Both the position numbers and the translations under genes were made by a program. From the IMG/VR virus record IMGVR_UViG_3300024518_000024, positions 1 to 12,620 of that record: 12,620 nucleotides of DNA; one strand, given 5' to 3'. Under the pieces are notes generated by a model. It searched no databases, was not told the origin of the DNA, and saw only the letters and a list, made by a program, of their open reading frames with translations. Below, piece after piece: positions 1-12,593 of this stretch. Source of the stretch: a virus. The first letter of the stretch is position 1; each line of letters starts with the position of its first letter.

Positions 1-122
1 ACTCCGAGATCGCAATCTGCAAGCTCAAATATGGGAAAAACTGGCACAAGGCCTACCGAGATCAAGTTATTTCAAACGTTAAAAAGAAACATTAGTTCTT
101 TCCCAAATACAGTTTATTTTAT
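1..122. repeat. Terminal direct repeat, copy A (identical to 12499-12620); marks a circular or terminally redundant 12,498-bp genome
   Basis: Base-by-base comparison: actccgagatcgcaatctgc...agtttattttat occurs at 1-122 and again at 12499-12620 (offset 12,498). Confidence 0.95.
3..95 (+). CDS. Duplicated 3' part of the 61-aa gene at 12408-12593 (partial, caused by the terminal repeat)
   Basis: In-frame translation SEIAICKLKYGKNWHKAYRDQVISNVKKKH* is identical to the C-terminus of ORF 12408-12593. It lies wholly inside the repeat. Confidence 0.6.
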   Translation, partial: SEIAICKLKYGKNWHKAYRDQVISNVKKKH

Positions 123-426
123 CAATCCTGCTTTTCTTACATATAGGGAAGTCTGCTCTTGTGAATTGCCCTGTTTTCGTAGCACAACCCTTACAGAATA
201 ACATTTTGTGATATTTGCATTGATAATAGACATCAAACATCTCATTCTTACACCAAGAGCAATCCAATCCCGTTGAAACTGGCTCAGTAGAATCGGCAAT
301 GCCTTGAGCAACCTTGTTTTCAGAAGCTCTTCTTTCAGCTCTTAGCTTCTGCCTTGCTATCTCTTGAATGTGAGGACTGTTATCACCTTGCCACCTTTCG
401 ACATCAACACCCATCATCTCACTCAT
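79..426 (-). CDS. Cys-rich putative zinc-binding protein (115 aa), function unknown
   Basis: ORF track. The C-terminal half has CSWC-x12-CKYH-x5-CKGC-x15-C spacing typical of zinc-ribbon or treble-clef folds. Its ATG overlaps the upstream RHH gene stop (ATGA, 423-426), indicating a two-gene operon. Confidence 0.6.
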   Translation of the reverse strand: MSEMMGVDVERWQGDNSPHIQEIARQKLRAERRASENKVAQGIADSTEPVSTGLDCSWCKNEMFDVYYQCKYHKMLFCKGCATKTGQFTRADFPICKKSRIDKINCIWERTNVSF

Positions 427-665
427 TTCTTCACCTTCTTAAAAATCTTAGTTTTAAGCTTGTCAATATCCTGTAAACTCTTCATCTGTATATCTGCTCT
501 ACCTATCTCAAACTGCAACTCATCATCAGACATAAGGGCTGTGGGATCATCAGTCTTAAGGAAATGATCCTTAAGAACTTGATTAACCAAAGAAGAGGCA
601 TTCGACTCCTTTCTCAAACGTTCTGCTAATTCCTGATCAATCGAGAATATCTTGTTAGTCTTCAT
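423..665 (-). CDS. Ribbon-helix-helix (CopG/Arc/MetJ-like) transcription regulator, 80 aa
   Basis: The N-terminus KIFSIDQELAERLRKESNASSLVNQVLKDHF fits the beta-strand/helix/turn/helix RHH pattern. It is the first gene of the - strand unit, divergent from the structural operon across the repeat-rich intergenic region. Confidence 0.7.
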   Translation of the reverse strand: MKTNKIFSIDQELAERLRKESNASSLVNQVLKDHFLKTDDPTALMSDDELQFEIGRADIQMKSLQDIDKLKTKIFKKVKK

Positions 666-686: not shown

Positions 687-694
687 TATTTAAA
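687..694 (-). promoter_or_regulatory. TATA-box-like octamer TTTAAATA (read on - strand) ending 22 nt before the ATG at 665
   Basis: Plus strand tatttaaa at 687-694 reads TTTAAATA on the - strand. There is no Shine-Dalgarno between it and the ATG (aactactaacaaacATG). Four + strand sites share this geometry. Confidence 0.6.
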
Positions 695-731
695 TATATA
701 GGTAATAGATAGTAGTAGTAGTTGTAGAAAG

Positions 732-752
732 TTCCAGTGGAAATAGGGGGGT
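732..752 (+). promoter_or_regulatory. Archaeal ORB-like element (dyad TTCCA-G-TGGAA, then A-TA and a G6 string); candidate Orc1/Cdc6 binding site
   Basis: The sequence is TTCCAGTGGAAATAGGGGGGT. It has a short dyad plus a downstream G-string and sits next to the AT-rich stretch 666-730. As I remember it, the archaeal ORB resembles TCCACAGGAAACGGAGGGGT. Confidence 0.45.
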
Positions 753-799
753 GTTCCTCTACTACTCTTAATGACAAACCTTAATAACTTTGTTCACTA

Positions 800-819
800 T
801 TGAATCGTACACGATTCAA
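800..819. promoter_or_regulatory. Perfect inverted repeat TTGAATCGT-ac-ACGATTCAA flanked by TTCACT direct repeats; candidate operator
   Basis: The 9-bp arms at 800-808 and 811-819 are exact reverse complements. TTCACT occurs at 793-798 and 824-829 on either side. Confidence 0.5.
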
Positions 820-867
820 AGCATTCACTCATTATTAATGGCATTATATCGTTGCGTAGAGGTTTTA

Positions 868-1108
868 CTGTCACTCAGTGACAATTGTAGTACCTATATT
901 CAGTGACAGTGACAATGTAGTACCTAACCGTAGAGAGGCTCTAGAGGCCATATTTGGGTACTTCAGCCCTTATGCATTTTTCATTGTTACTAAGTGACAG
1001 TTACAATATATATGTCACTACAATTATGTTACAGTGACACTATTGGTTCGCTTAACTGTAACTCAGTGACAGTTACAAATCTGTCACTGTCACGTAGTAA
1101 CAGTGACA
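868..1108. repeat. Iteron-like array: 11 copies of GTGACA/TGTCAC plus related GTTACA/TGTAAC motifs, arranged as nested direct and inverted repeats
   Basis: GTGACA starts at 878, 903, 909, 994, 1034, 1066 and 1103. TGTCAC starts at 869, 1013, 1082 and 1088. A 20/21-nt direct repeat CAGTGACAA(T)TGTAGTACCTA lies at 876-896 and 907-926. The 13-mer GTGACAGTTACAA lies at 994-1006 and 1066-1078. Inverted repeats are TGTCAC-tca-GTGACA (869-883) and TGTAACT-cagtgac-AGTTACA (1057-1077). Confidence 0.85.
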
Positions 1109-1119
1109 CCGACGTTGTA

Positions 1120-1151
1120 GGGGGGGGGATAATGGGGGGGGGTCATCCCCC
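1120..1151 (+). repeat. Twin homopolymer tracts G9-ATAAT-G9 followed by TCAT-C5 (potential G-quadruplex or GC hairpin)
   Basis: Counted directly: G at 1120-1128, ATAAT at 1129-1133, G at 1134-1142, TCAT at 1143-1146, C at 1147-1151. Confidence 0.9.
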
Positions 1152-1161
1152 AGACAAAAAT

Positions 1162-1169
1162 ATTATATA
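1162..1169 (+). promoter_or_regulatory. TATA-box-like octamer ATTATATA ending 22 nt before the terminase ATG (1191), preceded by A-rich BRE-like acaaaaa
   Basis: The sequence is cagacaaaaatATTATATAgttaacagtattaggcgaacaATG. There is no Shine-Dalgarno before 1191. Confidence 0.6.
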
Positions 1170-1190
1170 GTTAACAGTATTAGGCGAACA

Positions 1191-2513
1191 ATGGAGTATG
1201 ACAATTGGCAAAAATCTATACTTGAGGCAGAAGGAGACCTTTTAGCAAATACCGGCAGACAAGTGGGGAAAACGATGACTTTTAGCCACAAAATCGCGAT
1301 TTACCTGCTCAACAACCCGAAGCACCAAGTAATCGTGGTTTCCCTCACGGAAGACCAAGCTCAGCTGATAATCGTGATGATTTTGGACTATCTCCAGAAA
1401 AATCACAAAACACTAGTGCAAAAGGGCAAAAACAAGCCTACGAAGAGCAGAGTTTGGCTAAAAAACGGCGCGCACGTGATAAGCAGACCGGTCGGTAACA
1501 CAGGCGACGCAGTTCGTGGCTTTACCGGAAATGTTCTGTATATTGACGAAGCGAGCGGGATGCCCGAGATGATGTGGAAGGCCAGTATGCCAACCCTTAT
1601 GACAACCGGAGGGCAGATTTGGATGAGCTCCACGCCAAGGGGTAAGTTCATAGCAGGCAGCAGTGAAAAGAATTTCTTTTTCAAGTGTTGGGAGAATTTA
1701 GATGAGAAATGGACTGTTTTCAACATAGACAGCGAAAAGGTCGTCAAAGACAGAGAAATAACGAGTGACTGGACTGAAATAACAAGAGACAAAGCCCTCA
1801 AGTTCCTAGAAAACCAGAAATTGCTCCTCTCAGAGATGGAGTATAACCAAGAATACATGGCTAAATTCCTAGATGACATGAGGCAATGGTTCGAGGATGA
1901 GACAATAATATCAGCCATGACAGAACAAAGACCCAACAAAATAACCAAAGACAGCACATACTTCTTAGGAGTAGATGTGGCAAGGATGGGGGAAGACGAA
2001 AGTACCTTTCAAATTTTCGAGCTAAGAAAGGACAAGCTCTACCAAGTCGAAAGCCAAATCACAACCAAGACTACTCTACCCCAAACCTTCCATCATATAA
2101 AGGAACTGCACCTTCTTTATGACTTTGCAAGAATCTTCATTGATTCCGCCGGGATTGGGGTAGGGGTTTTTGATTGGCTGATGTACGATGATGACACAAA
2201 GCAAATAACCGAAGCAATTGACAACTCAAAGCAGGTCATGAGTGCAGATGGGCGGACAAGAAAGCTCCAAAAGACACTCAAATACAGTCATACTAAAATG
2301 CTGATGGAAACTGGGCGGTTGCACTTACTCGATGACCCAAAGATATTCCAGTCGTTCAAGTCCGTGCAGTACGCCTACACGAACGACAATCTGGGAACGA
2401 GGCATCTCAAGATATTTGGTAACTACACCCACATTGCCGAAGGAACCACTAACGCAGTTTGGGGTGAGAAAACGAAACACTTAAATCTTCAAGTGTACTC
2501 GATTAAAGTATGA
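1191..2513 (+). CDS. terL: Terminase large subunit (ATPase plus RNase-H-like nuclease), 440 aa
   Basis: Walker A is TGRQVGKT, Walker B is VLYIDEA and the coupling motif is MSSTPRG. Nuclease-domain acidic motifs are FLGVDVARMGEDEST and IFIDSAGIGVGVFDWL. This layout is typical of phage TerL. Confidence 0.9.
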   Translation: MEYDNWQKSILEAEGDLLANTGRQVGKTMTFSHKIAIYLLNNPKHQVIVVSLTEDQAQLIIVMILDYLQKNHKTLVQKGKNKPTKSRVWLKNGAHVISRPVGNTGDAVRGFTGNVLYIDEASGMPEMMWKASMPTLMTTGGQIWMSSTPRGKFIAGSSEKNFFFKCWENLDEKWTVFNIDSEKVVKDREITSDWTEITRDKALKFLENQKLLLSEMEYNQEYMAKFLDDMRQWFEDETIISAMTEQRPNKITKDSTYFLGVDVARMGEDESTFQIFELRKDKLYQVESQITTKTTLPQTFHHIKELHLLYDFARIFIDSAGIGVGVFDWLMYDDDTKQITEAIDNSKQVMSADGRTRKLQKTLKYSHTKMLMETGRLHLLDDPKIFQSFKSVQYAYTNDNLGTRHLKIFGNYTHIAEGTTNAVWGEKTKHLNLQVYSIKV

Positions 2514-2653
2514 CTGTGGAGAAACTGATTGAGGAGATGACTGCTATTAAGGTAGCATACCCAACTTTAGAGGTTTCTGAAGTTCTCCAAATATTTGAAA
2601 TACAAGCATTGAGGGAATTGACACTGATGTTGAGGAGGATTGCAAGTGGCTGA
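2510..2653 (+). CDS. Small hypothetical protein (47 aa), translationally coupled to terL
   Basis: My own translation is MTVEKLIEEMTAIKVAYPTLEVSEVLQIFEIQALRELTLMLRRIASG*. Its ATG overlaps the terL stop (ATGA at 2510-2513). It is below the ORF-track size cutoff. Confidence 0.35.
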   Translation: MTVEKLIEEMTAIKVAYPTLEVSEVLQIFEIQALRELTLMLRRIASG

Positions 2654-3017
2654 TTTAGGCACTCTAGCAACAACCGCCCAAGTCTTGCTAGCGATAGGGA
2701 ATGACGCAGGAACGGCACAAGTTTTAGAGGCCAATACTAATATTTGGATTCTAATGGCAGAAAGCGATATCGAAAAGCAATTTGGAGATAATGTGGGTAT
2801 TGTTGCAAACTACGCAAGCATAACCGCGGCAAACAAACAATGGTTAGCAATGGTGGCATCACATAGAGCTGCATTCTATGGAATTAACCAAGACCAAGGT
2901 AGTTGGCAATTATCAGTCAGTCAATCTAAATTAAATGTATGTGATTCTATATGGCAGGGTTTCATTTCAGACCTGAAGGACAATAAGGCCGATATAATTT
3001 CAGACTTAGGGCTATAA
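2640..3017 (+). CDS. Hypothetical virion protein (about 125 aa), possibly a head-tail adaptor
   Basis: ORF track (TTG start at 2640). GTG at 2646 sits 8 nt after GGAGG (2633-2637) and may be the real start. The protein is helical, about 14 kDa, and lies between terL and the portal. The adaptor role is a guess from size and position only. Confidence 0.55.
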   Translation: MQVADLGTLATTAQVLLAIGNDAGTAQVLEANTNIWILMAESDIEKQFGDNVGIVANYASITAANKQWLAMVASHRAAFYGINQDQGSWQLSVSQSKLNVCDSIWQGFISDLKDNKADIISDLGL

Positions 3018-3709
3018 TGGTATTACCCACACCCTTCACAACCTCTTCTCCAACAATAGCCACTTATGACTTTACTGAAATAGCGGAAGCCACGGGTTTC
3101 GTTACCTTCTATGGTAGTCAGTCAATAGATGACACAACCAAGACACACTTCCTTTCTTCTAATAAGACAAACTCCCAATTCATAGTAACCAAAGCAGCCC
3201 TATCCACAGAATCATTCTCCAAAGTTATTGACCTTGATTTTGATGTTCTCTTCAATCTTCCCCAAACTGTAAGGGGTACAGCTAGAGCTAACATAACAGT
3301 TGGCGGAGGTAACCTAGGTTCAGCAAATACAGTCGGTCAGGCATATGCGGTAATAAGGCTTAGGCATTGGGATGGTACAACAGAAACGGAGGTGGCGGAA
3401 GCACAAACCCATAAAATAGAATGGGCATCAAACGCCAACTATTCTGAAATAATGAACGTGGCTTTAGATGCAACTGCATCACAACATTATAAAAAAGGTG
3501 ACACCCTTAGAATGACAGTAGAGATATGGGGAAAGGTAGGCTCAGGTGCTAACGGTTCAGACTGTGGATTTGGACATGACCCAAACGAAAGAATAGACCC
3601 CGGACTTACTGAGGCAATACCCCCAGTTGCAGACACACAGGGGCAAGTAGTAACCGATGCAAACACAACTCAACTATCTTTCCTAATTCCCTTCAGATTA
3701 GAGGTATAA
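3017..3709 (+). CDS. Hypothetical structural protein, beta-rich, 230 aa
   Basis: ORF track. Its start overlaps the previous stop (TAATG). Composition is rich in T, S, G and N, as in beta-sandwich virion proteins. I recognise no family. Confidence 0.6.
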   Translation: MVLPTPFTTSSPTIATYDFTEIAEATGFVTFYGSQSIDDTTKTHFLSSNKTNSQFIVTKAALSTESFSKVIDLDFDVLFNLPQTVRGTARANITVGGGNLGSANTVGQAYAVIRLRHWDGTTETEVAEAQTHKIEWASNANYSEIMNVALDATASQHYKKGDTLRMTVEIWGKVGSGANGSDCGFGHDPNERIDPGLTEAIPPVADTQGQVVTDANTTQLSFLIPFRLEV

Positions 3710-4786
3710 ATGTCACAATTCGACCAAAACAAAGGCACAACCACAGACTTCTCGGCAAATGTAGAAGACTTCATAGTAACATCAAAGGCCTTAGACATAG
3801 CCAGCCCTGTGTCAGGGGAATACTATTGGTACTTTGACAAAGCAACCACAAACTTCGGCTACTACCTAGAGATTCCAGAGATATTCTCAGCAGCCAACTC
3901 CTTAGCAACATGGGCTTTCGGGAGGGGATGGATAACACCAGACCTTAGAATGCAATCACAACTAGAACACGTTAAGGGTTCAGGCATAGACCACTTTGAT
4001 AAAATAGTATTTAATCATGAGATTGTTAAGCTAATTGTAGGGGATGCATTTGCTGAAGTTAAGAAGAGCAACGGCCTTATTGTTAATATTATACCCATCT
4101 CACCGGAAAGAGTAAGGATAGTCTTTGGAAAATCTGGATTGATTAAGCGTTATGATGCATGGAATAATCAAAAGTGGGTTCCTATCAAAGTAGAGAATAT
4201 GTTACATAGTAGAAACAAACCAATCGGTGACAGCGTACATGGACAGAGCCAAGTCGAGCCAGCTAAGTTTATTATAGATGCAAGGAATGAGGCTTTGGCT
4301 GATGAGCGTGTTATCAAGCATAGAGATAAGGCCTTAGGTATTGTTTATTACAAAACGAACAACGCCGGAAAGATAACATATACAAACAGTCAGATAGAGA
4401 AGGCAGTGAACAAGGGGGAGATGCTCGGGCTGCCTGAAGACACAGCTAAGATAGACCCATATCCAAGTAGAAGCAGCGAAGACCGAACAGCATGGATAAG
4501 CTACCTTGAAAACTTCTTTTATCAAGTGTTCGGTGTACCGAGAAGTATTGCAACGAGTGACGGAACGAGTGAGGTGGGTGGTAAGATGGGTCACGTTATC
4601 TTTGAACCGGTATATGTTAAGGAGCAAAAGGACTTCGAGGCAGACCTATTGTTACAGCACTCAATCAAAGTACTATTCAATAGACCTCCTAGCTTAGGGG
4701 GATTGGCTGCTGAAACAGAGCAAAAGAATACCGGACAAACTAGCATTCAACCAAATGATGTGGAGGCATCTATAACAAGAGAATAA
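3710..4786 (+). CDS. Portal protein (HK97/PF04860-like pattern), 358 aa
   Basis: GDAFAEVKKSNGLIVNIIPISPERVRIVFGKSGLIKRYDAW...MLHSRN...GDSVHGQSQVEP and YLENFFYQVFGVPRSI match the conserved portal pattern as I recall it (G.ay...l.pl.p..v...g.i..Y...vlH...G.S and ia.afgvP..l). GAGGT lies 9 nt before the ATG. Confidence 0.75.
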   Translation: MSQFDQNKGTTTDFSANVEDFIVTSKALDIASPVSGEYYWYFDKATTNFGYYLEIPEIFSAANSLATWAFGRGWITPDLRMQSQLEHVKGSGIDHFDKIVFNHEIVKLIVGDAFAEVKKSNGLIVNIIPISPERVRIVFGKSGLIKRYDAWNNQKWVPIKVENMLHSRNKPIGDSVHGQSQVEPAKFIIDARNEALADERVIKHRDKALGIVYYKTNNAGKITYTNSQIEKAVNKGEMLGLPEDTAKIDPYPSRSSEDRTAWISYLENFFYQVFGVPRSIATSDGTSEVGGKMGHVIFEPVYVKEQKDFEADLLLQHSIKVLFNRPPSLGGLAAETEQKNTGQTSIQPNDVEASITRE

Positions 4787-5841
4787 TGCCACATACACGT
4801 GAACACTTTGCAACGGGTACAACAAACCCGAATGCACCAATCCCAATACTGCCCTCAGAAATAGAAGGGCAGGATTTCAGTGTCGATACTGGGAGAGAGG
4901 ATTGTGAAAGACTGGGAGGTACATGGGACGCAGCAGCAAGAATATGCAGGGGTGCTGAATCAAGACCCCCTTTCGACCCAGCACCATTCACACCGGAGAT
5001 AATTAGAGCAGGTAAGGGAGAGCGTAATGAAGGCAGAATAACAGGTACTACGTTACCAGATGGTTCTACATTCTTTGGCAACGAAGCTGAAATAAGGGAC
5101 TTAGTGGGGAAGAGAGTACAACAATTAACTGACCCCTCAGGCTCACAACCGGCTGGTACAACTAGGACTAATATTGAGATTGGAAGGGAGCAATCTTTAT
5201 TGCAATCTCAGGGTGCACAACTAGCGCAACAAGTCGGGCAGATAAGCCCATCAACTGGCATCACTCCAACAAACTTATCTCAAACTGATGCTATTACTGC
5301 TGGTGTCATGAATTCAATACCTAGAGCTTTGGGTTTAGCTGCGGGATATGCTGCAATAGGTGGTGCAGCAGGTTTAGCAACAGGCCCAGCAGCACCAGTT
5401 GTAAGTCCGGCCTTAGCAATAGCAGGTGCAACTGCAGGTCTTGTACAAGGAATAGGGGGGGGAATGATTAGCAATATGAGAGGACAGAGGACAGACAACA
5501 CCAACGCACAACAAAGGGTTCTTGATGAGGGTAAGCAAACCCTGAAGGATTGGAGTACCTTAGCGAAGGCCGACCCAGCAAACAGGGAGTTTTACTTATC
5601 ACAGTTTAACGTACAACTTCAATTAATACAAGATGCTCATGTTCAGATGCTAACCGATACAAACGCAGATGTGGCCAAGTTTGAAAGTGCGGTTCCCAAC
5701 CTAGCTGAGTTTAATTCGTTCTACTCAGCAGGGGGAGAGAGGGATGCCTTAGTTGAGGACATGAGAATATCCCTAACCACACCAGTGAGTATTGAGTATG
5801 CTATGGTAGAGCTGACAACTAGGAGAGCAAATGATATCTGA
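4786..5841 (+). CDS. Hypothetical protein with a central Gly/Ala-zipper membrane-like segment (351 aa); possible internal, ejection or membrane-active virion protein
   Basis: ORF track. Residues ALGLAAGYAAIGGAAGLATGPAAPVVSPALAIAGATAGLVQGIGGGMI form two hydrophobic glycine-zipper stretches. The C-terminal third is helical. The start overlaps the portal stop (TAATG). Confidence 0.6.
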   Translation: MPHTREHFATGTTNPNAPIPILPSEIEGQDFSVDTGREDCERLGGTWDAAARICRGAESRPPFDPAPFTPEIIRAGKGERNEGRITGTTLPDGSTFFGNEAEIRDLVGKRVQQLTDPSGSQPAGTTRTNIEIGREQSLLQSQGAQLAQQVGQISPSTGITPTNLSQTDAITAGVMNSIPRALGLAAGYAAIGGAAGLATGPAAPVVSPALAIAGATAGLVQGIGGGMISNMRGQRTDNTNAQQRVLDEGKQTLKDWSTLAKADPANREFYLSQFNVQLQLIQDAHVQMLTDTNADVAKFESAVPNLAEFNSFYSAGGERDALVEDMRISLTTPVSIEYAMVELTTRRANDI

Positions 5842-5968
5842 CCCCTTACTTAACTACGGCATGGCAGGCATATTCATAGCCTACTTAATCTATGACAGAC
5901 AGGTGCTAGTCAGAGGCCTTGTTAAATCTATTGACAACCTAACTGCTGCAATACAGAAACATTTATAA
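5831..5968 (+). CDS. Small single-pass membrane protein (45 aa)
   Basis: My own translation is MISDPLLNYGMAGIFIAYLIYDRQVLVRGLVKSIDNLTAAIQKHL*. AGGAG (5821-5825) lies 5 nt before the ATG. One hydrophobic helix is followed by an amphipathic tail. It overlaps the preceding gene end by 11 nt. Confidence 0.5.
   Translation: MISDPLLNYGMAGIFIAYLIYDRQVLVRGLVKSIDNLTAAIQKHL
5961..5968 (+). promoter_or_regulatory. TATA-box-like octamer ATTTATAA ending 22 nt before ATG 5990
   Basis: The sequence is gaaacATTTATAActagctgtgtcaggtaagagtATG, with the same spacing as the other four sites. Confidence 0.45.
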
Positions 5969-5989
5969 CTAGCTGTGTCAGGTAAGAGT

Positions 5990-6319
5990 ATGACTGAAAA
6001 TGAACAGACAGATAAGACTAACACCGTTGGAGATGACACTGATTCTAAACCTGCGGTTGCTGAGGCAGATAAACCCGTATCTATTGTGGAAGAAGCTCGT
6101 GCAATCAGAGATGAGATTAAGAAAGAAAGGGAGAAACTCGATGAGGCGAACAAGACCTCGCAGAAAATCCAAGCGGAAAATCTATTAGGTGGCTCAGCTG
6201 GTGGTCACGTTGAAGCAGTTAAGGTTTCCCCTGAAGTCCAGAAGGCAAAGGATGCAGCAACGTTTTTCAAAGGGACACAACTAGAAGAGGACATTAAGAA
6301 AGCCAATGAACAAAGCTGA
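5990..6319 (+). CDS. Acidic, helical scaffold-like protein (109 aa from ATG 5990; the ORF track opens at GTG 5975)
   Basis: The protein is highly charged with coiled-coil character (EEARAIRDEIKKEREKLDEANKTSQKIQAE) and lies upstream of the decoration and capsid genes. No prohead protease is present, which fits a separate scaffold. The function is assigned from position and composition. Confidence 0.5.
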   Translation: MTENEQTDKTNTVGDDTDSKPAVAEADKPVSIVEEARAIRDEIKKEREKLDEANKTSQKIQAENLLGGSAGGHVEAVKVSPEVQKAKDAATFFKGTQLEEDIKKANEQS

Positions 6320-6455
6320 ATGGAAAGACCAGAAAAAGATACTGGTTAAACACCTAGAAACAGCTGAAAAGAACAGAAAGACAGCTAACGACCAAATAGA
6401 TGAGCTAACTCTAACTATCTCAGCATACGATGAGAAAATCAAAACATTTAAATAA
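6306..6455 (+). CDS. Small coiled-coil hypothetical protein (49 aa)
   Basis: My own translation is MNKAEWKDQKKILVKHLETAEKNRKTANDQIDELTLTISAYDEKIKTFK*. It overlaps the scaffold-like gene end by 14 nt and fills an otherwise non-coding gap. Confidence 0.4.
   Translation: MNKAEWKDQKKILVKHLETAEKNRKTANDQIDELTLTISAYDEKIKTFK
6447..6454 (+). promoter_or_regulatory. Canonical TATA-box-like octamer TTTAAATA ending 22 nt before ATG 6476 (decoration and capsid genes)
   Basis: The sequence is atcaaaacaTTTAAATAatccgttcaccgaataactctATG. There is no Shine-Dalgarno and the upstream flank is A-rich. Confidence 0.55.
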
Positions 6456-6475
6456 TCCGTTCACCGAATAACTCT

Positions 6476-6874
6476 ATGGCTAACGAAGCGGTGTGCATTG
6501 AGACCCCTACAAGATTTGCAAGAAGGGTGATAGCAACAGGAACCGCGATACCTTTTGGTTCTATTATGCAGATTTCTAGTGACCCGGACACAGTGACTAT
6601 TTCTGATGGGGATAATGTTTTTGGTGGAATTAACTGGACACCTATACTGGCAACTGATACCTTTACTGAAATTACTGTGGCTTTGAATGGTACATGGGAT
6701 ATCAAGGATTCCGGAGCAGGTATGGCTATTGGAAACAAGTGCTCAGTTAATGGAGTTAATTTGGTTAAGACATTAATAGAGGCAGATACAGTTTTAGGTA
6801 AGGAAGTAGGTAAGGTTTTAGAGACAGCTAGCGCTAGTGAAGTTGTTAGAGTTAGAGTGGGGTCAGGTGAATAA
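6476..6874 (+). CDS. DUF2190-like head decoration or cement protein, 132 aa
   Basis: The pattern GTAIPFGSIMQIS...VFGGINW...ITVALNGTWDIK...GMAIGNKCSVNG...LGKVLETASASEVVRVRV matches the DUF2190 (PF09956) layout as I remember it. The gene lies immediately upstream of the capsid gene. Confidence 0.55.
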   Translation: MANEAVCIETPTRFARRVIATGTAIPFGSIMQISSDPDTVTISDGDNVFGGINWTPILATDTFTEITVALNGTWDIKDSGAGMAIGNKCSVNGVNLVKTLIEADTVLGKEVGKVLETASASEVVRVRVGSGE

Positions 6875-6960
6875 TGATAGATGAAGAAAAGAACACAACG
6901 GAAGAAGAAGGGAAGGATGAAAGCGATACTGAACAATCGACCGAAGGAGAGGAGGAATAA
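6874..6960 (+). CDS. Tiny, highly acidic ORF (28 aa) coupled at both ends (TAATG...TAATG); may only be a translated spacer
   Basis: My own translation is MIDEEKNTTEEEGKDESDTEQSTEGEEE*. The start overlaps the stop at 6872-6874 and the stop overlaps the capsid ATG at 6960. It contains the GGAGAGGAGG ribosome-binding site of the capsid gene. Confidence 0.2.
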   Translation: MIDEEKNTTEEEGKDESDTEQSTEGEEE

Positions 6961-7832
6961 TGGTAGCAGGTAGCGAGTTAGTAAACACAGACTTACGTAA
7001 GGAGTTCATAGATTCAGCAGTTAAGGCAGTTGTTAAGATTGAAGAGAAGTGGAAAGCCATGTGTACAATCGATAGTTCTTCAGCATGGACAGAATCATAT
7101 TTTAGAGAAACAAATGATGATTCCACTGATACAGGAACCGGGAGCCCAATGAAAGGATTAAGAGAATACGCGCCTTTCCCATTCATTGATGTAACGGAAA
7201 CAAAGGTTAGTTCCGTGATTGACAAGTATGCAGGGGAAAGCATTATTTCCTTGGAAGCCCAGTCAAACATCACAGTCCCTATGCTTCAAAGAAAGATTTA
7301 TAGGATTGGAAGAAAGATAATCTACCAAGTTGATGTAGCTATTGAAGCAAGTGTTAGCACAAACGCAGGTAACACCGTAGCAATCGGAGCAGGCAACGAG
7401 TGGGATTCTGCAACCATTGCTAACAGAGACCCGATTAAGGATGTTGCAGATGCGATTCAGACTTTAAGAGCTGACGGTATTGATGCCTTAGATGGCTCCG
7501 GCTTGTTAGTTGTTAATGGGACTGATTACACAAATATCATTACAAACACAAAGGTACTGAACCACCCAACATTCAAGGAAGTCTCCGCTATAAAGAACGG
7601 TAGAGTGAATATGCTGATGGGTCTTACTGTAGTTATAAGTGAAGCAGTCCAACCAGACCAAGCTTATGTTCTAGTTCAAAAGAAAGGTATGGTATGGAAA
7701 GCTGCCGAAGGAATGAAGGTTGTTACAACTGAAGAGCCGGGTAAGTGGACAACTATCCGGGCATGGGAGCGTGGTGTGTTTCAACTTCAGGCACCTAACG
7801 AGGTTTGTAAACTTACAAACACGAGGGCTTAG
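6960..7832 (+). CDS. Major capsid protein, HK97 fold (290 aa)
   Basis: It has the strongest Shine-Dalgarno in the genome (GAAGGAGAGGAGG). The motif layout NEWDSATIANRDPIKDVADAIQTLRADGIDALDGSGLLVVNGTDYTNI resembles the PF05065 pattern (W....dp..di..ai..l...g..p..ivmn..). Its position after the scaffold and decoration genes also fits. Confidence 0.7.
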   Translation: MVAGSELVNTDLRKEFIDSAVKAVVKIEEKWKAMCTIDSSSAWTESYFRETNDDSTDTGTGSPMKGLREYAPFPFIDVTETKVSSVIDKYAGESIISLEAQSNITVPMLQRKIYRIGRKIIYQVDVAIEASVSTNAGNTVAIGAGNEWDSATIANRDPIKDVADAIQTLRADGIDALDGSGLLVVNGTDYTNIITNTKVLNHPTFKEVSAIKNGRVNMLMGLTVVISEAVQPDQAYVLVQKKGMVWKAAEGMKVVTTEEPGKWTTIRAWERGVFQLQAPNEVCKLTNTRA

Positions 7833-7834
7833 CT

Positions 7835-8017
7835 ATGACACACGAGGGTAGGATGGCTCGCGGGAAGGAGAAAATTTCTAAAGGCATTAAAGATATTGAA
7901 ACTGAATACTATGAAGCTAACCAAGAAGTCGTACCTATTACAACTCCGGGTTATCCTAAGATGATTACAGCTATAGCAAAGAAGGAGAAGAAAAATGTCA
8001 AACCCAAGTCAGGATGA
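7835..8017 (+). CDS. Small basic hypothetical protein (60 aa)
   Basis: ORF track. GAGGG lies upstream of the ATG. No family recognised. Confidence 0.5.
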   Translation: MTHEGRMARGKEKISKGIKDIETEYYEANQEVVPITTPGYPKMITAIAKKEKKNVKPKSG

Positions 8018-8192
8018 GTTATACCCTAAGCATCTTGTAATTCCTCAGTACACAACTGCTGAGCGTAACGCTCTGATTGCAGATGTTGGCACCTTAATCT
8101 ATGATTCTACCCAAGATAAGTTAGCATTCTGTAAGGCTAAAGCTGCTGCTGCTGCTAGCTGGGAACTGATTACAAGCGTGGAGGAATCATAA
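7995..8192 (+). CDS. Small hypothetical protein (65 aa) with a fibre-like motif
   Basis: GAAGGAG lies 8 nt upstream of the ATG. LVIPQYTTAERNALIADVGTLIYDSTQDKLAFC...W resembles a motif I associate with N-terminal regions of some tail-fibre-like proteins, which is memory-based and weak. It contains an Ala run encoded by (GCT)5 at 8142-8156. Confidence 0.55.
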   Translation: MSNPSQDELYPKHLVIPQYTTAERNALIADVGTLIYDSTQDKLAFCKAKAAAAASWELITSVEES

Positions 8193-9023
8193 ATGGCCAC
8201 CACAGACATCTATCATATAACTGGTGGGCTTAAAGGCAGGAATGCAGTCATGTTTATTGATGGAGATACAGATGACTACGTACAAGTGAACGCTCACGCT
8301 GTGGCTAGAGTTGCGGCTAACGATACTGTTGGTACTTACAGCGCCTGGGTTAACATCATTAATATTGCTGATACGTTTACTGTCTTAGGAGCAGGTGATG
8401 CTAATGTTGTTGAATTTCTAGAGTTGAACATTGAAGCAGGTCTCTTGACTGCAAGGTGTACTGATGGGACAGTTGCCCAGTTTGTAACTCAAGCTGATGC
8501 TATTGGTTTTAAACCCCACAGATGGTATCACGTTGCAATGGTGCAGAATGCTAACGGGCAGGGAGTACACCTGTATATTGATGGAGAAAAGATAGCCTCA
8601 ACCAATGACACAACAACAGATGTGGATGAGTGGTATAATAATTTGGATGGTATTGATACGTTTAGAATTGGAGCAGCAAACAAAGCAGGGAATGATTCAG
8701 TGACTAATGAAATTACTGGTGGGATTAGTGACGTGAAGTATTGGAGTACAAACCTCACAGACACAGAGGTAAAGAATGATTTTCTTGGGGAAGCAGTGCA
8801 GGCCTCAGCATTACAGCTGCATATAGATTTTGTGGATGACTTGGTTGATGCTGGGCTGGGAGCAGATGATGGCACTATTGTTGGTGCAGTACTTCAATCA
8901 AATAATTATTGTGAGTTTACCTCAAGATTAAGAAATAGCACGGGCACGCCCGTTGTAGCCGATACCGTTCAATGTTTTGCCTCCGGGGAAACCGGGCACG
9001 CTGTGGTGATTCAGGCGGCCTAA
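8193..9023 (+). CDS. LamG / concanavalin-A-like lectin-fold protein (Laminin_G_3-like), 276 aa; probable carbohydrate-binding virion appendage
   Basis: TYSAWVNI...HRWYHVAMVQNANGQGVHLYIDGEKIAS...FRIGAANKAG...GGISDVKYWSTNLTDTEVKNDF is the classic LamG_3 (PF13385) signature. GGAGG lies upstream of the ATG. Confidence 0.75.
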   Translation: MATTDIYHITGGLKGRNAVMFIDGDTDDYVQVNAHAVARVAANDTVGTYSAWVNIINIADTFTVLGAGDANVVEFLELNIEAGLLTARCTDGTVAQFVTQADAIGFKPHRWYHVAMVQNANGQGVHLYIDGEKIASTNDTTTDVDEWYNNLDGIDTFRIGAANKAGNDSVTNEITGGISDVKYWSTNLTDTEVKNDFLGEAVQASALQLHIDFVDDLVDAGLGADDGTIVGAVLQSNNYCEFTSRLRNSTGTPVVADTVQCFASGETGHAVVIQAA

Positions 9024-9024
9024 C

Positions 9025-10917
9025 TTGGCACGCAACCCTTTGATACGACCGCGCAATATTTCTAAAGGCAAGCCAATGCCTACTCGTTCAGCTGGAATAT
9101 TAGATGACCATGCTCTGAGAAAGACTATTGCCACAAAGCAGGGCACTATAGAGCACGTACCCGCTAATGATTCTGATATTGCAAATAAGAAATACGTGGA
9201 TGGTGGGACTTACTTGACAGCTGGTGAGGGGATTGATATTACCGGCACAACTATTTCTGGAGAAGATTCAACAAGTTCTAATAAAGGAATCGTGACGATA
9301 ACTGGAGGCAATGGGATAGATGTTGAATACCCTGTTGATGGGCTGGCCGCAATCTCCGGAGAGCTGGCAACAGATACAAACACAGGCATTGCTAGATTTG
9401 ATGCTACTGGGTTCACAGTCACCGGAGGAAATGTTGTAATCAACGACATTTACGTCTTCAACTCAGGAGACACAATGACGGGACAATTAATTGTTCAGTC
9501 TGGCAACGGTAAAATCGTCACTTCTAATTCTTCTGGCTCTATTGATGTGCAGGATTCAAGTGGAAATGCTGGAAGCATAAGTTTTGGAAACACAGCAGAC
9601 ATTGGAATAAGCAATGATGGAGTGAGCGGTGGTTATGATTATGATGGAGCATTTATTCTAAAACAAAAAACCTCACAACCGGCAGAGAGAGGAGAGTTTA
9701 TCTTTATTGAACAAGGAGGAGATTGGAGATTTGCAATACCTAAGAGTGAGGCAGGAGTGGGGACATACAATCCGAGAAGCATGATTATTGCAGGACCCAG
9801 TACCAACATGACAACAAACTTTCAAGCTTCACATTGGGGATTCACTAACCTAGCTATGGACACAAGCGGAGATGGAGCAGACTTAGGGGTACAAAATGAT
9901 TGTGAAATCTTAGGGGATTTATTTGTTGGAGGGGCAACAGACTTATCTGGAAATATTGATATGAATGAAAACAATATTACAAATATAGGAGATCTAGATG
10001 GTGGTACTGCATTAAATCTTGTAGCAAGTCTATTTCTAACATTCAAATCTCCGGTAATTACATTGGGAGATGGTACTCTTTCGAGTGTTGGCTTATCATT
10101 CAACACAAGCGCAACAGATGGAACAATAACTTTTAATGGAACAAGTGGACAATACGATTTTGACAATCCAATAGACATGAACACGAATAAAATTGTTGGA
10201 GTTGTGGACCCAACCGCAGACCAAGAAGTCGCAACTAAAAAGTATGTTGATGACAACGACCATAGCTCTGTCACAATGTCTGGAACTCCGAACTACATAA
10301 CTCTTGTCGGGCAGGATATTGTGAGAGGCACGGTTGATATATCAGACGATACAAACCTCGCAGTCACAGCCCCAATTGTCTTAACAGGAGATACAGTTTC
10401 GGTAAGCACAACAACCTCAAGCGCTGTTGGAGTAATTGAGTTAGCAACGGAGGACGAAGTCCAAACCGGAACAGACACAACAAGAGCAGTAACCCCAGAC
10501 ACATTGCAATCTATTGCTCCCCCAATCGGAACGGTTATGGCATGGCTAAAATCCTATACTTCAACTCCCGCAACTCTACCGACTGGATGGGTGGAAGCAG
10601 ACGGCGCAACATTAAGCGATGCGGACTCTGTTTATGATGGACAGGTACTTCCCGATCTGAACGGAGGGATATTCTTGAGAGGAAACACAACTTCGGGAGC
10701 AACTGGAGGAAGCTCAACCCATAGATTAACAACGGCTGAAATGCCATCTCACATTCACACAGTTTCTACGAAAGTAGTGGCGGCATCTCCAGCAGGATTG
10801 GGTGGCGTTGCTTTCACAGGAGCCAACACAGTTAATACAAGTTCAACCGGTGGAGATACGGCCCACGAGAACAGACCTCCCTTCTATGATATTGTTTGGA
10901 TAATGAGAATAAAATGA
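9025..10917 (+). CDS. Tail fibre / receptor-binding protein with C-terminal phage tail-collar domain (630 aa from TTG 9025; alternative ATG at 9076)
   Basis: The C-terminus PIGTVMAWLKS...LPTGWVEADGATLS...VLPDLNGGIFLRG...GGSSTHRLTTAEMPSHIHT fits the tail-collar / MdpB-like family (PF07484). (A/V)(N/T)KKYVD occurs twice. VGVIELATEDEVQTGTDTTRAVTPDTL is a common fibre motif. Confidence 0.85.
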   Translation: MARNPLIRPRNISKGKPMPTRSAGILDDHALRKTIATKQGTIEHVPANDSDIANKKYVDGGTYLTAGEGIDITGTTISGEDSTSSNKGIVTITGGNGIDVEYPVDGLAAISGELATDTNTGIARFDATGFTVTGGNVVINDIYVFNSGDTMTGQLIVQSGNGKIVTSNSSGSIDVQDSSGNAGSISFGNTADIGISNDGVSGGYDYDGAFILKQKTSQPAERGEFIFIEQGGDWRFAIPKSEAGVGTYNPRSMIIAGPSTNMTTNFQASHWGFTNLAMDTSGDGADLGVQNDCEILGDLFVGGATDLSGNIDMNENNITNIGDLDGGTALNLVASLFLTFKSPVITLGDGTLSSVGLSFNTSATDGTITFNGTSGQYDFDNPIDMNTNKIVGVVDPTADQEVATKKYVDDNDHSSVTMSGTPNYITLVGQDIVRGTVDISDDTNLAVTAPIVLTGDTVSVSTTTSSAVGVIELATEDEVQTGTDTTRAVTPDTLQSIAPPIGTVMAWLKSYTSTPATLPTGWVEADGATLSDADSVYDGQVLPDLNGGIFLRGNTTSGATGGSSTHRLTTAEMPSHIHTVSTKVVAASPAGLGGVAFTGANTVNTSSTGGDTAHENRPPFYDIVWIMRIK

Positions 10918-11105
10918 AAAAGCAAAAACTAATAAAAAACATCGAATATATTTTAGATTGCTTGGAAGCTGATAAGAAAACTGCATCCCACAATGAGAAG
11001 GAAACCAACGCTATCGTCGATAGAATGATTGATTTTCAGATTCTATACCACCAATATGCAGGGCATTACTATCACCGAAAAGTATATAAAGACTTACTTA
11101 CTTAG
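10914..11105 (+). CDS. Small hypothetical protein (63 aa from ATG 10914; the ORF track opens at TTG 10896)
   Basis: The ATG overlaps the fibre stop (ATGA at 10914-10917). It is the last gene of the structural block. Confidence 0.5.
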   Translation: MKKQKLIKNIEYILDCLEADKKTASHNEKETNAIVDRMIDFQILYHQYAGHYYHRKVYKDLLT

Positions 11106-11111
11106 TAAGTC
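11083..11111 (+). promoter_or_regulatory. TATA-like octamer TATATAAA (11083-11090) followed directly by a perfect 8-bp-stem palindrome GACTTACT-tactt-AGTAAGTC (11091-11111) that abuts ATG 11112
   Basis: The octamer ends 22 nt before ATG 11112 and is preceded by ccgaaaa (BRE-like). I checked the palindrome pair by pair. It fills the whole TATA-to-start interval. Confidence 0.55.
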
Positions 11112-11279
11112 ATGACAATAAAAACATTAAACCTAAATTATTCCTTAACTAATTTTAATTCAATGAAGAAGAAGAAGGATATGTATGAGAAATTAAAGGG
11201 AAAGATTAGCTGGGAAGATTTTGTTTTCATGTGCACCGTCACCTATTTTCCTAAAGATGAGAAGGAGGTGAAAAAATGA
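11112..11279 (+). CDS. Small hypothetical protein (55 aa), first gene of the non-structural module
   Basis: My own translation is MTIKTLNLNYSLTNFNSMKKKKDMYEKLKGKISWEDFVFMCTVTYFPKDEKEVKK*. The stop overlaps the next ATG (ATGA at 11276-11279). The promoter-like box sits at the conserved distance. Confidence 0.45.
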   Translation: MTIKTLNLNYSLTNFNSMKKKKDMYEKLKGKISWEDFVFMCTVTYFPKDEKEVKK

Positions 11280-11575
11280 ATTGTAATAAATGCGGAATTG
11301 GACAGATGGCTTTGAAGTCAGGAAGGAACGGGCAGTTTATGGCCTGTGACCAGTATCCTCAATGCAAGAATACTGAGAACGTGGCACCGGGAACGCCAAT
11401 AATTCCACAAGCAACTGCACCAGCTAAGGAATACCACTTAAGCCCTGAAGAAGTAAATGCTAGAGCCTTGGAAGCTGCTATTAATTGCTCAGACATGGAG
11501 CAGAGACAGCAAACCAATCAATTACTAGACTTAGCTAATGTGTTTGTCAAGTACATAATGGGGAATGGGTACTAA
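11276..11575 (+). CDS. Topoisomerase-type C4 zinc-finger DNA-binding protein (99 aa)
   Basis: CNKCGIGQMALKSGRNGQFMACDQYPQCKNT matches the zf-C4_Topoisom pattern (C.CG..m......G.F.gC..yP.C). A strong Shine-Dalgarno AAGGAGGTG is present. Confidence 0.7.
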   Translation: MNCNKCGIGQMALKSGRNGQFMACDQYPQCKNTENVAPGTPIIPQATAPAKEYHLSPEEVNARALEAAINCSDMEQRQQTNQLLDLANVFVKYIMGNGY

Positions 11576-11916
11576 TGAAAGGACACAGCAGGAATAAGGT
11601 TGCTAAGAAGGAGCTGGAAGCACAGAAGGAATGGAGAAGGCAAGTATTGGAGAGAGATGGCCATAAGTGTCAGATTTGTGACCCTAGTGTTGTTGCTAAA
11701 AGGCTCAATGTCCATCATCTCATCCCGAGGGGAATTAAAGAATATCGGTGGGATGTGGACAATGGAATGACCTTGTGTGTCAGGCATCACACGCTTGGCA
11801 CGTTTTCAGCACATAAACATCCTTTTTGGTTTGTGAATTGGTTATGGAAAACCAAACCAAAGATATACTTTCAAATGGAAAGAAGGAACGCTCTAGCATA
11901 TTCGGAGGCTGGTTGA
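11575..11916 (+). CDS. HNH endonuclease (113 aa)
   Basis: GHKCQIC...LNVHHLIPR...DVDNGMTLCVRHH is a canonical HNH motif with flanking Cys pairs. The start overlaps the previous stop (TAATG). Confidence 0.85.
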   Translation: MKGHSRNKVAKKELEAQKEWRRQVLERDGHKCQICDPSVVAKRLNVHHLIPRGIKEYRWDVDNGMTLCVRHHTLGTFSAHKHPFWFVNWLWKTKPKIYFQMERRNALAYSEAG

Positions 11917-11965
11917 TGGTTCACCAGACGAACCCTGACATCCCGGAAAGACGGGAATTATAATC

Positions 11966-12202
11966 ATGGGAGAAACAGCAGAATTCGTAAAGGAGTTCAA
12001 TAAAGAAAAAAGTTTAAGCGAGAAGATTGAATGCGGAATAGTCCCTTGTGATGAAAAACTGCATAGGAAATCATTGAAAGCAACAGATGTACGAGAAGCG
12101 GTGCGGAGGTTGAAGCAAGCGACAGAGGAAGGACATGACGATTGGAATCTAAGTACAATGCTTAAAGAAATTGATGAGATATTCGGGGAAGCTCTCACAT
12201 GA
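11966..12202 (+). CDS. Hypothetical protein (78 aa), paralog A of a tandem pair
   Basis: It shares K(S/P)LSEK, EAVRRLK and LKE(I/L)(D/N)EIFGE blocks with the next ORF. Nucleotide identity is visible too (gtgcggaggttgaag in both). Confidence 0.6.
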   Translation: MGETAEFVKEFNKEKSLSEKIECGIVPCDEKLHRKSLKATDVREAVRRLKQATEEGHDDWNLSTMLKEIDEIFGEALT

Positions 12203-12417
12203 AACCACTGAGTGAGAAGGTCTTTGATGCAAAAGGGACGTGCTACACGGGTAAAGTCATTGAGGCCTGCAATGTTGCTGAGGCTGTGCGGAGGTTGAAG
12301 GAATTAACAAAGTCATGGATATTTGGAGAAGGCCCGTTTATGATAAACGAAGATAACATTGACGAGTACCTTAAGGAATTGAACGAGATATTCGGGGAGA
12401 TGAGAGAATGGGGATAA
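12199..12417 (+). CDS. Hypothetical protein (72 aa), paralog B of a tandem pair
   Basis: See paralog A. The ATG overlaps the paralog A stop (ATGA at 12199-12202). Confidence 0.6.
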   Translation: MKPLSEKVFDAKGTCYTGKVIEACNVAEAVRRLKELTKSWIFGEGPFMINEDNIDEYLKELNEIFGEMREWG

Positions 12418-12593
12418 CACCAAACAATCTCATGCTTGAGCGTGTGATCATGAAAAGAATGCAGGAACTATTAGATCAAGGTGAAGGGGAGCTCATAGAC
12501 TCCGAGATCGCAATCTGCAAGCTCAAATATGGGAAAAACTGGCACAAGGCCTACCGAGATCAAGTTATTTCAAACGTTAAAAAGAAACATTAG
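12408..12593 (+). CDS. Hypothetical protein (61 aa); its 3' end lies in the terminal repeat and converges on the - strand Zn-binding gene
   Basis: ORF track. It overlaps the preceding gene by 10 nt. On the circular map its last 17 nt overlap the 3' end of the - strand gene (coordinates 79-95). Confidence 0.5.
   Translation: MGITPNNLMLERVIMKRMQELLDQGEGELIDSEIAICKLKYGKNWHKAYRDQVISNVKKKH

Follow-up and report, generated by a model that had tools for sequence, protein, structure and literature searches.

Promoters that pair a transcription factor B (TFB) recognition element (BRE) with a TATA box and lead into leaderless first genes are already well known in archaea, viruses included, and the mechanism by which they act is textbook knowledge. 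In Thermococcus kodakarensis the TATA box and the BRE lie ~23 bp and ~33 bp upstream of the transcription start, many promoters are located within the 3' end of the upstream open reading frame (ORF), and ~14% of the mRNAs are leaderless (PMC4247193). Haloarchaeal promoters combine a CGAAA-type BRE, a TATA core of 4-5 conserved bases and a WW element at -10/-11; most haloarchaeal transcripts are leaderless, and Shine-Dalgarno sites are found at fewer than 10% of the genes, those within operons included (Brenneis et al. 2007; PMC2151090). In Sulfolobus and Pyrobaculum, genes that stand alone or come first in an operon are leaderless, and Shine-Dalgarno sites are found at the more distal genes of operons (cited in PMC2151090). 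Among viruses, the record of SSV1 (NC_001338) contains experimentally derived box A and start features. The box of promoter T3 ends at 7828, with the transcription start at 7851 and the ATG at 7852; that of T4 ends at 9151 (start 9173, ATG 9174); T9 starts at 13551 (ATG 13552), and Tind starts at the ATG itself (5177). The box end is therefore 22-23 nt from the start in T3 and T4, and T3, T4 and T9 start 1 nt upstream of the ATG. We analyzed a comparable arrangement in a 12,620-nt stretch of viral DNA, IMG/VR record IMGVR_UViG_3300024518_000024 (hereafter the window), in which five A/T-only octamers each end 22 nt before an ATG. We consider, with a probability of about 0.85, that the five octamers serve as archaeal basal promoters in a small tailed virus with a circular genome and are read by the host machinery. 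As the mechanism is familiar, the value of this result lies in classification and annotation and not in new transcription biology.

A first-pass annotation of the window had described the five octamers as archaeal TATA boxes, and all five boxes and their start codons sit where it had placed them. At each site the last base of the box and the A of the ATG are 22 nt apart, with caveats as to register at two of the sites. Promoter P1, on the minus strand, consists of the box TTTAAATA at 694-687 (element 687..701) and has its predicted start at the A of ATG 665. The other four are on the plus strand: P2 combines a BRE-like caaaaat (1155-1161) with the TATA box ATTATATA (1162-1169) and has its predicted start at ATG 1191 of the large terminase gene terL; P3 (5954..5968) combines a BRE-like cagaaac with ATTTATAA (5961-5968), with a predicted start at ATG 5990 +/- 1 nt; P4 (6440..6454) combines the BRE tcaaaac(a) with TTTAAATA (6447-6454), with a predicted start at ATG 6476 of the decoration gene; and P5 (11076..11090) combines a canonical BRE, cgaaaag, with TATATAAA (11083-11090), with a predicted start at ATG 11112. 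All five genes begin with ATG, and the bases at -1 are c, a, t, t and c. The A-rich, BRE-like flank that had been reported for most sites is found at four of the five (caaaaat, cagaaac, tcaaaac and cgaaaag); at P1 the BRE position is occupied by ctatata (701-695), which has no AAA core. With respect to register, the A/T run at the 6476 site spans 6446-6456 and its edge is 20 nt from the ATG, so that '22' is here a choice of register, although one supported by the family matrix described below. At the 5990 site the matrix favors a register 1 nt nearer the ATG. The boxes at sites 665 and 1191 are the ATG-proximal ends of 14-nt A/T runs. The position of the boxes agrees with the architecture of SSV1, T. 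kodakarensis and haloarchaeal promoters.

The enrichment test that the annotation had proposed gave a strongly positive result for the window and a much clearer one still for 29 related genomes. The window contains 39 A/T-only runs of at least 8 nt, and a box ends at -22 for 5 of 25 gene starts, with three or fewer at every other offset. Relative to 25 random ATGs from the same genome this corresponds to P = 1.5e-4 (2e-4 when the maximum over all offsets is taken); with each upstream 70-mer rotated, P was 3e-4, and with each shuffled, P was 5e-3 (maximum over all offsets). The 22-nt spacing is thus enriched above chance under three null models, which take the choice of offset into account.

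The relatives were collected by terminase and capsid searches and extended with further complete relatives, giving 29 non-redundant genomes or fragments (individual relatives are designated L001, L002 and so on). Genes were called in these by a simple ORF rule with ATG starts only, which reproduced most of the public collection's calls on L031. For 177 genes the upstream gap measures 15 nt or more (gap genes); of these, 61 have a box that ends at -22 and 46 one that ends at -23, against a background of ~10 at other offsets, whereas genes without such a gap (internal genes, n = 315) have a flat profile, with 18 boxes at -22. When decoration-protein-sized and terL-sized genes were left out, 46 boxes remained at -22 versus a median of 7. 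Applied to SSV1, the same octamer test gave a peak at 23-24; no sharp peak was seen in Bacillus phage phi29, nor in Pelagibacter phage HTVC010P, which showed only a broad rise at 12-18.

Alignment of the 61 family sites with a box at -22 yielded a composite motif. Positions -36 to -30 read (c/a)(g/a)AAA(c/a)a, with A at 70-75% of sites from -34 to -32; -29 to -22 read TTTAAATA, followed by g at -21 and an A/T-rich segment from -10 to -3. At -1, T is present in 41/61 sites (67%) and C in 11/61, and +1 is the A of the ATG. The exact octamer TTTAAATA accounts for 22 of the 61 boxes, and TTTAWATA is matched at 7 or more of its 8 positions in 36. Judged by sequence, this consensus is a BRE, a TATA box and, on the condition that transcription starts at the ATG, an initiator. 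A log-odds matrix was built from the relatives only, leaving out the window, and both strands of the window were scanned (25,202 positions). The four highest-ranking positions are the sites at 6476 (P4, the top match, score 19.5), 11112 (P5, 14.7), 665 (P1, 13.7) and 1191 (P2, 11.3), each with +1 at the A of the ATG. The weakest site, P3, ranks eighth with a score of 8.9 and +1 at 5991.

The dedicated promoter that had been postulated for the decoration and capsid genes is P4, the best conserved of the promoters in this family. Homologues of the decoration gene (n = 14, 34-78% amino-acid identity) keep the arrangement aaacaTTTAAATA-N21-ATG with a variable spacer, and at P4 the box reaches a pairwise identity of 0.93 and the BRE one of 0.68, compared with 0.40 for the spacer and 0.36 for the more distal upstream DNA, which is coding in most genomes. 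In the window the box overlaps the TAA stop of gene 6306-6455; in several relatives it is intergenic, and the box is therefore not merely the end of an upstream gene. The remaining promoters also have counterparts. The P3 box ATTTATAA contains the TAA stop of gene 5831-5968, and the L036 homologue of the 5990 gene is preceded by ggaaagg-TTTTATAAA at equal distance, without a Shine-Dalgarno site. P5 lies inside gene 10914-11105, and P5-like promoters (accgaaaag or accgataag joined to TATATAAA or TTTATAAA) occur in four relatives. In some 12 relatives terL is preceded at 21-28 nt by a TTTATAAA-type box, without a convincing Shine-Dalgarno motif, and divergent minus-strand small genes that face terL and have a box at -22 are present in eight.

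Translation signals differ between the genes that follow a box and those inside the putative operons. The Shine-Dalgarno sites that had been named for internal genes are all present: GAGGT (3701..3705) lies 4 nt upstream of the portal ATG 3710, AGGAGAGGAGG (6945..6955) precedes the capsid ATG 6960, AGGAG (7983..7987) precedes ATG 7995, GGAGG (8180..8184) precedes ATG 8193 and AGGAGGTG (11263..11270) precedes ATG 11276. None of the five box genes has a GGAGG-like site, as had been stated for four of them, and the weak aggtaagag before 5990 is replaced by atgtaatag in L036, which shows that it is not conserved. Across the family, five-base Shine-Dalgarno-like words precede 5% of the box genes, a frequency equal to the random-position background (5%), versus 22% of the internal genes (Fisher P = 4.6e-4). 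The pattern of apparently leaderless first genes and Shine-Dalgarno-led internal genes thus holds statistically.

In the mechanism that we propose, the TATA-binding protein (TBP) of the host would bind the 8-bp TATA box at -29 to -22, and TFB would read the purine-rich cGAAA-type BRE (~-36 to -30) and set the direction of transcription. Archaeal RNA polymerase would melt the A/T-rich region near -10 and start at the A of the ATG, usually after a pyrimidine, so that the first cistron would be translated as a leaderless mRNA; abutting or overlapping downstream cistrons would be translated through Shine-Dalgarno pairing and coupling. P3, P4 and P5 would raise the output of the scaffold-like, decoration/capsid and small-gene modules, respectively. 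Since these three promoters overlap upstream coding sequence and no terminators lie between the modules, they would probably add to read-through and not generate isolated transcripts. By analogy with SSV1 T3 and T4, whose distances are the same, the box-ATG distance of 22-23 nt suggests a 5' untranslated region of 0 to ~8 nt.

This range leaves room for mRNAs with very short leaders that are not strictly leaderless, an explanation that we consider unlikely. It would account for the second family peak at 23 with its tail to 24-28, for the spacings of 21-28 nt found in the terL relatives, for the matrix prediction of +1 at 5991 for the 5990 site and for the precedent of SSV1 T3, T4 and T9, which start at -1 and not at the A. 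However, the mode at 22 is sharp and equals the box-end-to-start distance of SSV1 T4, Shine-Dalgarno sites are not enriched at the box genes, and leaders of 8 nt or less conventionally count as leaderless (PMC4247193).

A bacterial host is less probable still and would give the box a different role, as a -10-like or UP-like element or as the target of a virus-encoded factor, with a ~15-nt leader lacking a Shine-Dalgarno site. Hexamers resembling TATAAT (at least 5/6) do occur within 38 of the 61 boxes, but a -35 partner is missing from all 19 candidate -10 hexamers in the family, no information content is seen from -70 to -46, and 93% of sites have A as the final box base, which in a -10 hexamer is expected to be T (-7). 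The conserved cGAAA directly 5' of the box and the missing peak in the phage controls phi29 and HTVC010P also speak against it. Sigma-70-like sites in the window number 19 versus 24.5 +/- 4.5 in shuffled sequences, and none of them serves the five genes; the -10/-35 architecture, which had been named as grounds for abandoning the archaeal interpretation, is absent from the window and from the family boxes. A single sigma-70 match, CTGACA-N18-TATAAT (11/12) at 11935-11964, was rejected, as its start would fall inside gene 11966 and such matches are not enriched. The accessory genes (CcdA-like, RusA, Dam) are not domain-specific, and one relative's capsid protein was binned in a Hydrogenedentota genome, both of which would suit a bacterial host; with regard to a virus-encoded factor, no RNA polymerase or sigma-like family was found among the proteins scanned, and the genome is only 12.5 kb.

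A compositional or annotation artefact, in which A/T-rich gene ends with TAA stops and short gaps place octamers at one offset, is hardly credible: three boxes do overlap the 3' end of the preceding gene or sit within it, two of them containing the TAA stop of that gene, the offset was picked after looking, and TTTAAATAG closes two reading frames and could bias ORF-based start calls, but the nulls correct for the choice of offset, neither internal genes nor control phages show a peak, the box is intergenic and not at a stop in several relatives, the starts are fixed by the conserved N-termini of the decoration protein and TerL and agree with those of an independent gene caller, and a frame-closing bias predicts decaying distances and not a spike at 22-23.

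Certain observations nevertheless weigh against the interpretation of the boxes as archaeal promoters. The description of the first genes as leaderless depends on box-ATG spacing and on the lack of Shine-Dalgarno sites. Orthologous promoters are statistically dependent, so that the family counts overstate the number of independent events, and the gene caller behind these counts accepted ATG starts only. Within the window, the AAA core of the BRE is missing at site 665, and the score of site 5990 is just 8.9. Among 67 accessory proteins encoded by the family, a Pfam scan detected no archaea-specific protein family. The archaeal assignment by binning depends on a 2.8-kb contig, and one relative's capsid, on a 5.9-kb contig, is labelled Candidatus Hydrogenedentota bacterium in NCBI, Hydrogenedentota being the only name that NCBI gives for eight capsid clusters.

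On balance, the promoter reading makes an archaeal host very probable at the level of domain. The claim that the pattern points to archaea is well supported and strongly implied, mainly by the promoter grammar, and we infer the domain of the host chiefly from it; host evidence of other kinds is weak and conflicting. No evidence specific to Sulfolobales was found, and the BRE resembles the CGAAA type of haloarchaea. Halogranum tailed virus 1 (HGTV-1), a haloarchaeal virus, is the only GenBank virus that matches TerL at E < 1e-14 (2e-20). Given the base composition of haloarchaea, the family G+C of 33-47% argues against a haloarchaeal host. A search of GTDB species representatives gave a single match, the 2.8-kb contig mentioned above, which binning had assigned to a Nanoarchaeota genome. 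Homologues of a C5 methyltransferase encoded by L026 gave no lineage signal, and a glycosyltransferase of L015 matched only itself. No integrated copy was seen, and no contig exceeds genome length except one of 23.2 kb, which consists of two 11,687-bp units; this contig was considered as a provirus and rejected as a two-unit concatemer. We suggest tentatively that these are undescribed, globally distributed viruses, the smallest known archaeal head-tailed viruses, recognizable as archaeal only by cGAAA-TTTAAATA-N21-ATG, and that the host is perhaps a small-genome marine lineage of the DPANN/Nanoarchaeota type.

Like SSV1, the virus has a compact genome that appears circular and promoters that directly follow the preceding gene or lie inside its end; its A/T boxes lie at the predicted distance, as box A of SSV1 lies 22-25 nt before a mapped start that is at the ATG or 1 nt before it. 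Unlike this family, SSV1 is a Sulfolobales fusellovirus whose boxes read TTTTTAAA or TTTATAAA without a cGAAA-type BRE, and its starts were mapped experimentally whereas those given here are predictions. The virus described here is also head-tailed, with a terminase, a portal and a capsid protein of phage head type, in which it differs from SSV1. With haloarchaea the family shares the CGAAA-type BRE abutting the TATA box, the A/T preference near -10 and, presumably, leaderless first genes, but the box here extends over all 8 bp, and Shine-Dalgarno sites are overrepresented at internal genes. The combination of putatively leaderless proximal genes and Shine-Dalgarno-led distal genes, the TATA and BRE distances and the location of promoters in upstream ORF ends resemble Sulfolobus/Pyrobaculum and T. 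kodakarensis; unlike T. kodakarensis, where ~14% of mRNAs are leaderless, essentially all recognizable promoters here are at leaderless distance. The head-tail gene set resembles that of HGTV-1 (TerL 23% identity, E = 2e-20), whose record is 144 kb versus 11.7-12.6 kb in this family.

A promoter grammar of this type serves as a cultivation-free marker of host domain for a large, apparently undescribed and widespread family of tailed viruses with many marine members. Archaeal tailed virus isolates have been described with genomes of 35-105 kbp (PMC8651126); if the hosts are archaea, the 12-kb genomes of this family would be ~3x smaller, and an abundant, overlooked virus group would be added to marine archaeal ecology. 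The promoter map further provides a five-unit transcription plan, a candidate regulated promoter in P5 and a simple motif by which further archaeal viruses could be recognized in metagenomes.

The five promoters would divide the genome into five transcription units. Two small genes are on the minus strand and all others on the plus strand. Unit 1 (79..665, minus strand) comprises an 80-aa gene (665-423), predicted to be leaderless, and a 115-aa Cys-rich gene (426-79) preceded by aaggtga. Unit 2 (1191..5968) contains genes that abut or overlap: terL (1191-2513; PF03237 2.8e-16, phrog_2 5.7e-36), 2510-2653, 2640-3017, 3017-3709, the portal gene (3710-4786; PF04860 in the collection's precomputed annotation, phrog_2662 weak), 4786-5841 and 5831-5968. 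Unit 3 (5990..6455) comprises a 109-aa gene and a 49-aa gene. Unit 4 (6476..11105) contains the genes for a cement-like decoration protein (6476-6874), a 28-aa ORF, the major capsid protein (6960-7832; PF25209 Phage_capsid_4, precomputed; phrog_1650 6.8e-18), 7835-8017, 7995-8192, a LamG-domain protein (8193-9023), the tail fiber (9025-10917, TTG start) and 10914-11105. Unit 5 (11112..12593) carries small non-structural genes, namely a 55-aa gene, a Zn-ribbon protein gene (11276-11575), an HNH endonuclease gene (11575-11916), 11966-12202, 12199-12417 and 12408-12593. Units 2 to 5 are on the plus strand. T-rich tracts follow both convergent gene ends, near 30-45 and 95-140, and are weakly consistent with archaeal termination.

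The ends of the window share an exact direct repeat of 122 nt, which indicates that the genome is circular or was assembled from concatemers and leaves a unit of 12,498 bp. By family matches, the products of the genes include the terL, portal and HK97-type capsid proteins expected of Caudoviricetes, and on this basis the window is a very small head-tailed virus with a capsid protein of phage head type. The window proteins scanned yielded no match to a polymerase, primase or Rep family; Pfam scans of these and of 62 accessory proteins of relatives recognized no replication protein, integrase or lysis enzyme, and the window has no Rfam family match and no tRNA gene. Gene calls of the public collection on four other contigs of the same virus yield the same products, including a 109-aa product that matches the gene starting at ATG 5990. 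Sampling sites at which this virus was obtained are recorded under ENA ERZ27250004, JGI 3300024520, SRR7615700 and SRR7615941. The G+C content is 42.5% in the window and 33-47.5% in the relatives (median near 36-37%), and genomes of the family measure 11.7-12.6 kb. The terminase search returned 25 related IMG/VR contigs at 59-83% identity. The capsid protein has 697 homologues in public data, one a Tara entry, and among the best 120 of these 697 the source contigs reach ~12.6 kb. Neither capsid nor portal had a tblastn match in 50,697 GenBank phage records, and TerL gave distant matches only against GenBank phages. A literature search, limited and without supplements and subscription journals, found no description of ~12-kb archaeal tailed viruses, and the family of very small tailed viruses is apparently undescribed.

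Two structural genes show irregularities in gene calling. The terminase of L026 (L026:2817-4181; also L029:53-1417) is divided into two ORFs of 122 aa and 317 aa that lie 43 nt apart, and tblastn nevertheless aligns residues 1-440; a frameshift, a small insertion or an assembly error is possible. The tail-fiber gene at 9025 has a TTG start directly 3' of the LamG stop, and the collection's caller used ATG 9076 instead (613 aa). Fiber homologues of L022, L001 and L029 begin with ATG. An A/T-only box ends 22 nt before the fiber ATG in L022 and L029, and an A/T-rich box lies ~25 nt before it in L001; the LamG gene may have been inserted between the fiber gene and a fiber promoter.

Additional boxes and elements were noted near the promoters. 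The 14-nt A/T run of P1 (687-700) is nearly symmetric, and the plus strand also reads TTTAAATA at 689-696 (matrix 7.6, +1 predicted near 718), a box that might drive transcription into an ORF-less repeat region. Within the 3' end of terL (2474-2510), cgaaacaCTTAAATC has its predicted +1 at 2509, beside ATG 2510, with a score of 5.9, and aaacaTTTAAATC is found at the equivalent place in two relatives (L019 and L020); the sequence might act as a weak sixth promoter, or its conservation may simply reflect that of the C-terminus of TerL. The spacer from the P5 TATA box to the ATG is filled by a perfect palindrome with 8-bp arms (11091..11111, GACTTACT-TACTT-AGTAAGTC), and different palindromes are present at the equivalent place in L025:8167 and L016:505. 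The P5 palindrome could be an operator for a repressor, overlapping the predicted transcription start.

The non-coding divergent region between P1 and P2 (666-1190, ~525 nt) contains ~10 direct or inverted copies of GTGACAG/GTTACAG within 858-1120, of which CAGTGACAGTGACA and TGTCACTGTCAC are examples. These repeats resemble iterons or sites for a DNA-binding protein, and because no replication gene is recognizable they possibly mark a candidate origin. Directly 5' of the terL promoter is a single-copy element, CGACGTT-N4-GGGGGGGG-ataat-GGGGGGGGGTCATCCCCCAGA (1109-1155, core 1121-1155). Of the 29 non-redundant relatives, 17 have one plus-strand copy of this element in their genomes, where it usually precedes an A/T run with an oligo-T tract and then the BRE/TATA promoter of terL or of an HNH-like gene. 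Its G-run and C-run could form a hairpin, and the element is a candidate packaging (cos/pac) site or origin in a family that encodes both an HNH endonuclease and a large terminase. A further small hairpin, CCCGGAAAGACGGG, which the rejected CTGACA-N18-TATAAT match overlaps, is located at 11935-11965, 5' of gene 11966, and the similar CCCTGAAAGACGGGG lies upstream of the HNH homologue in L023.

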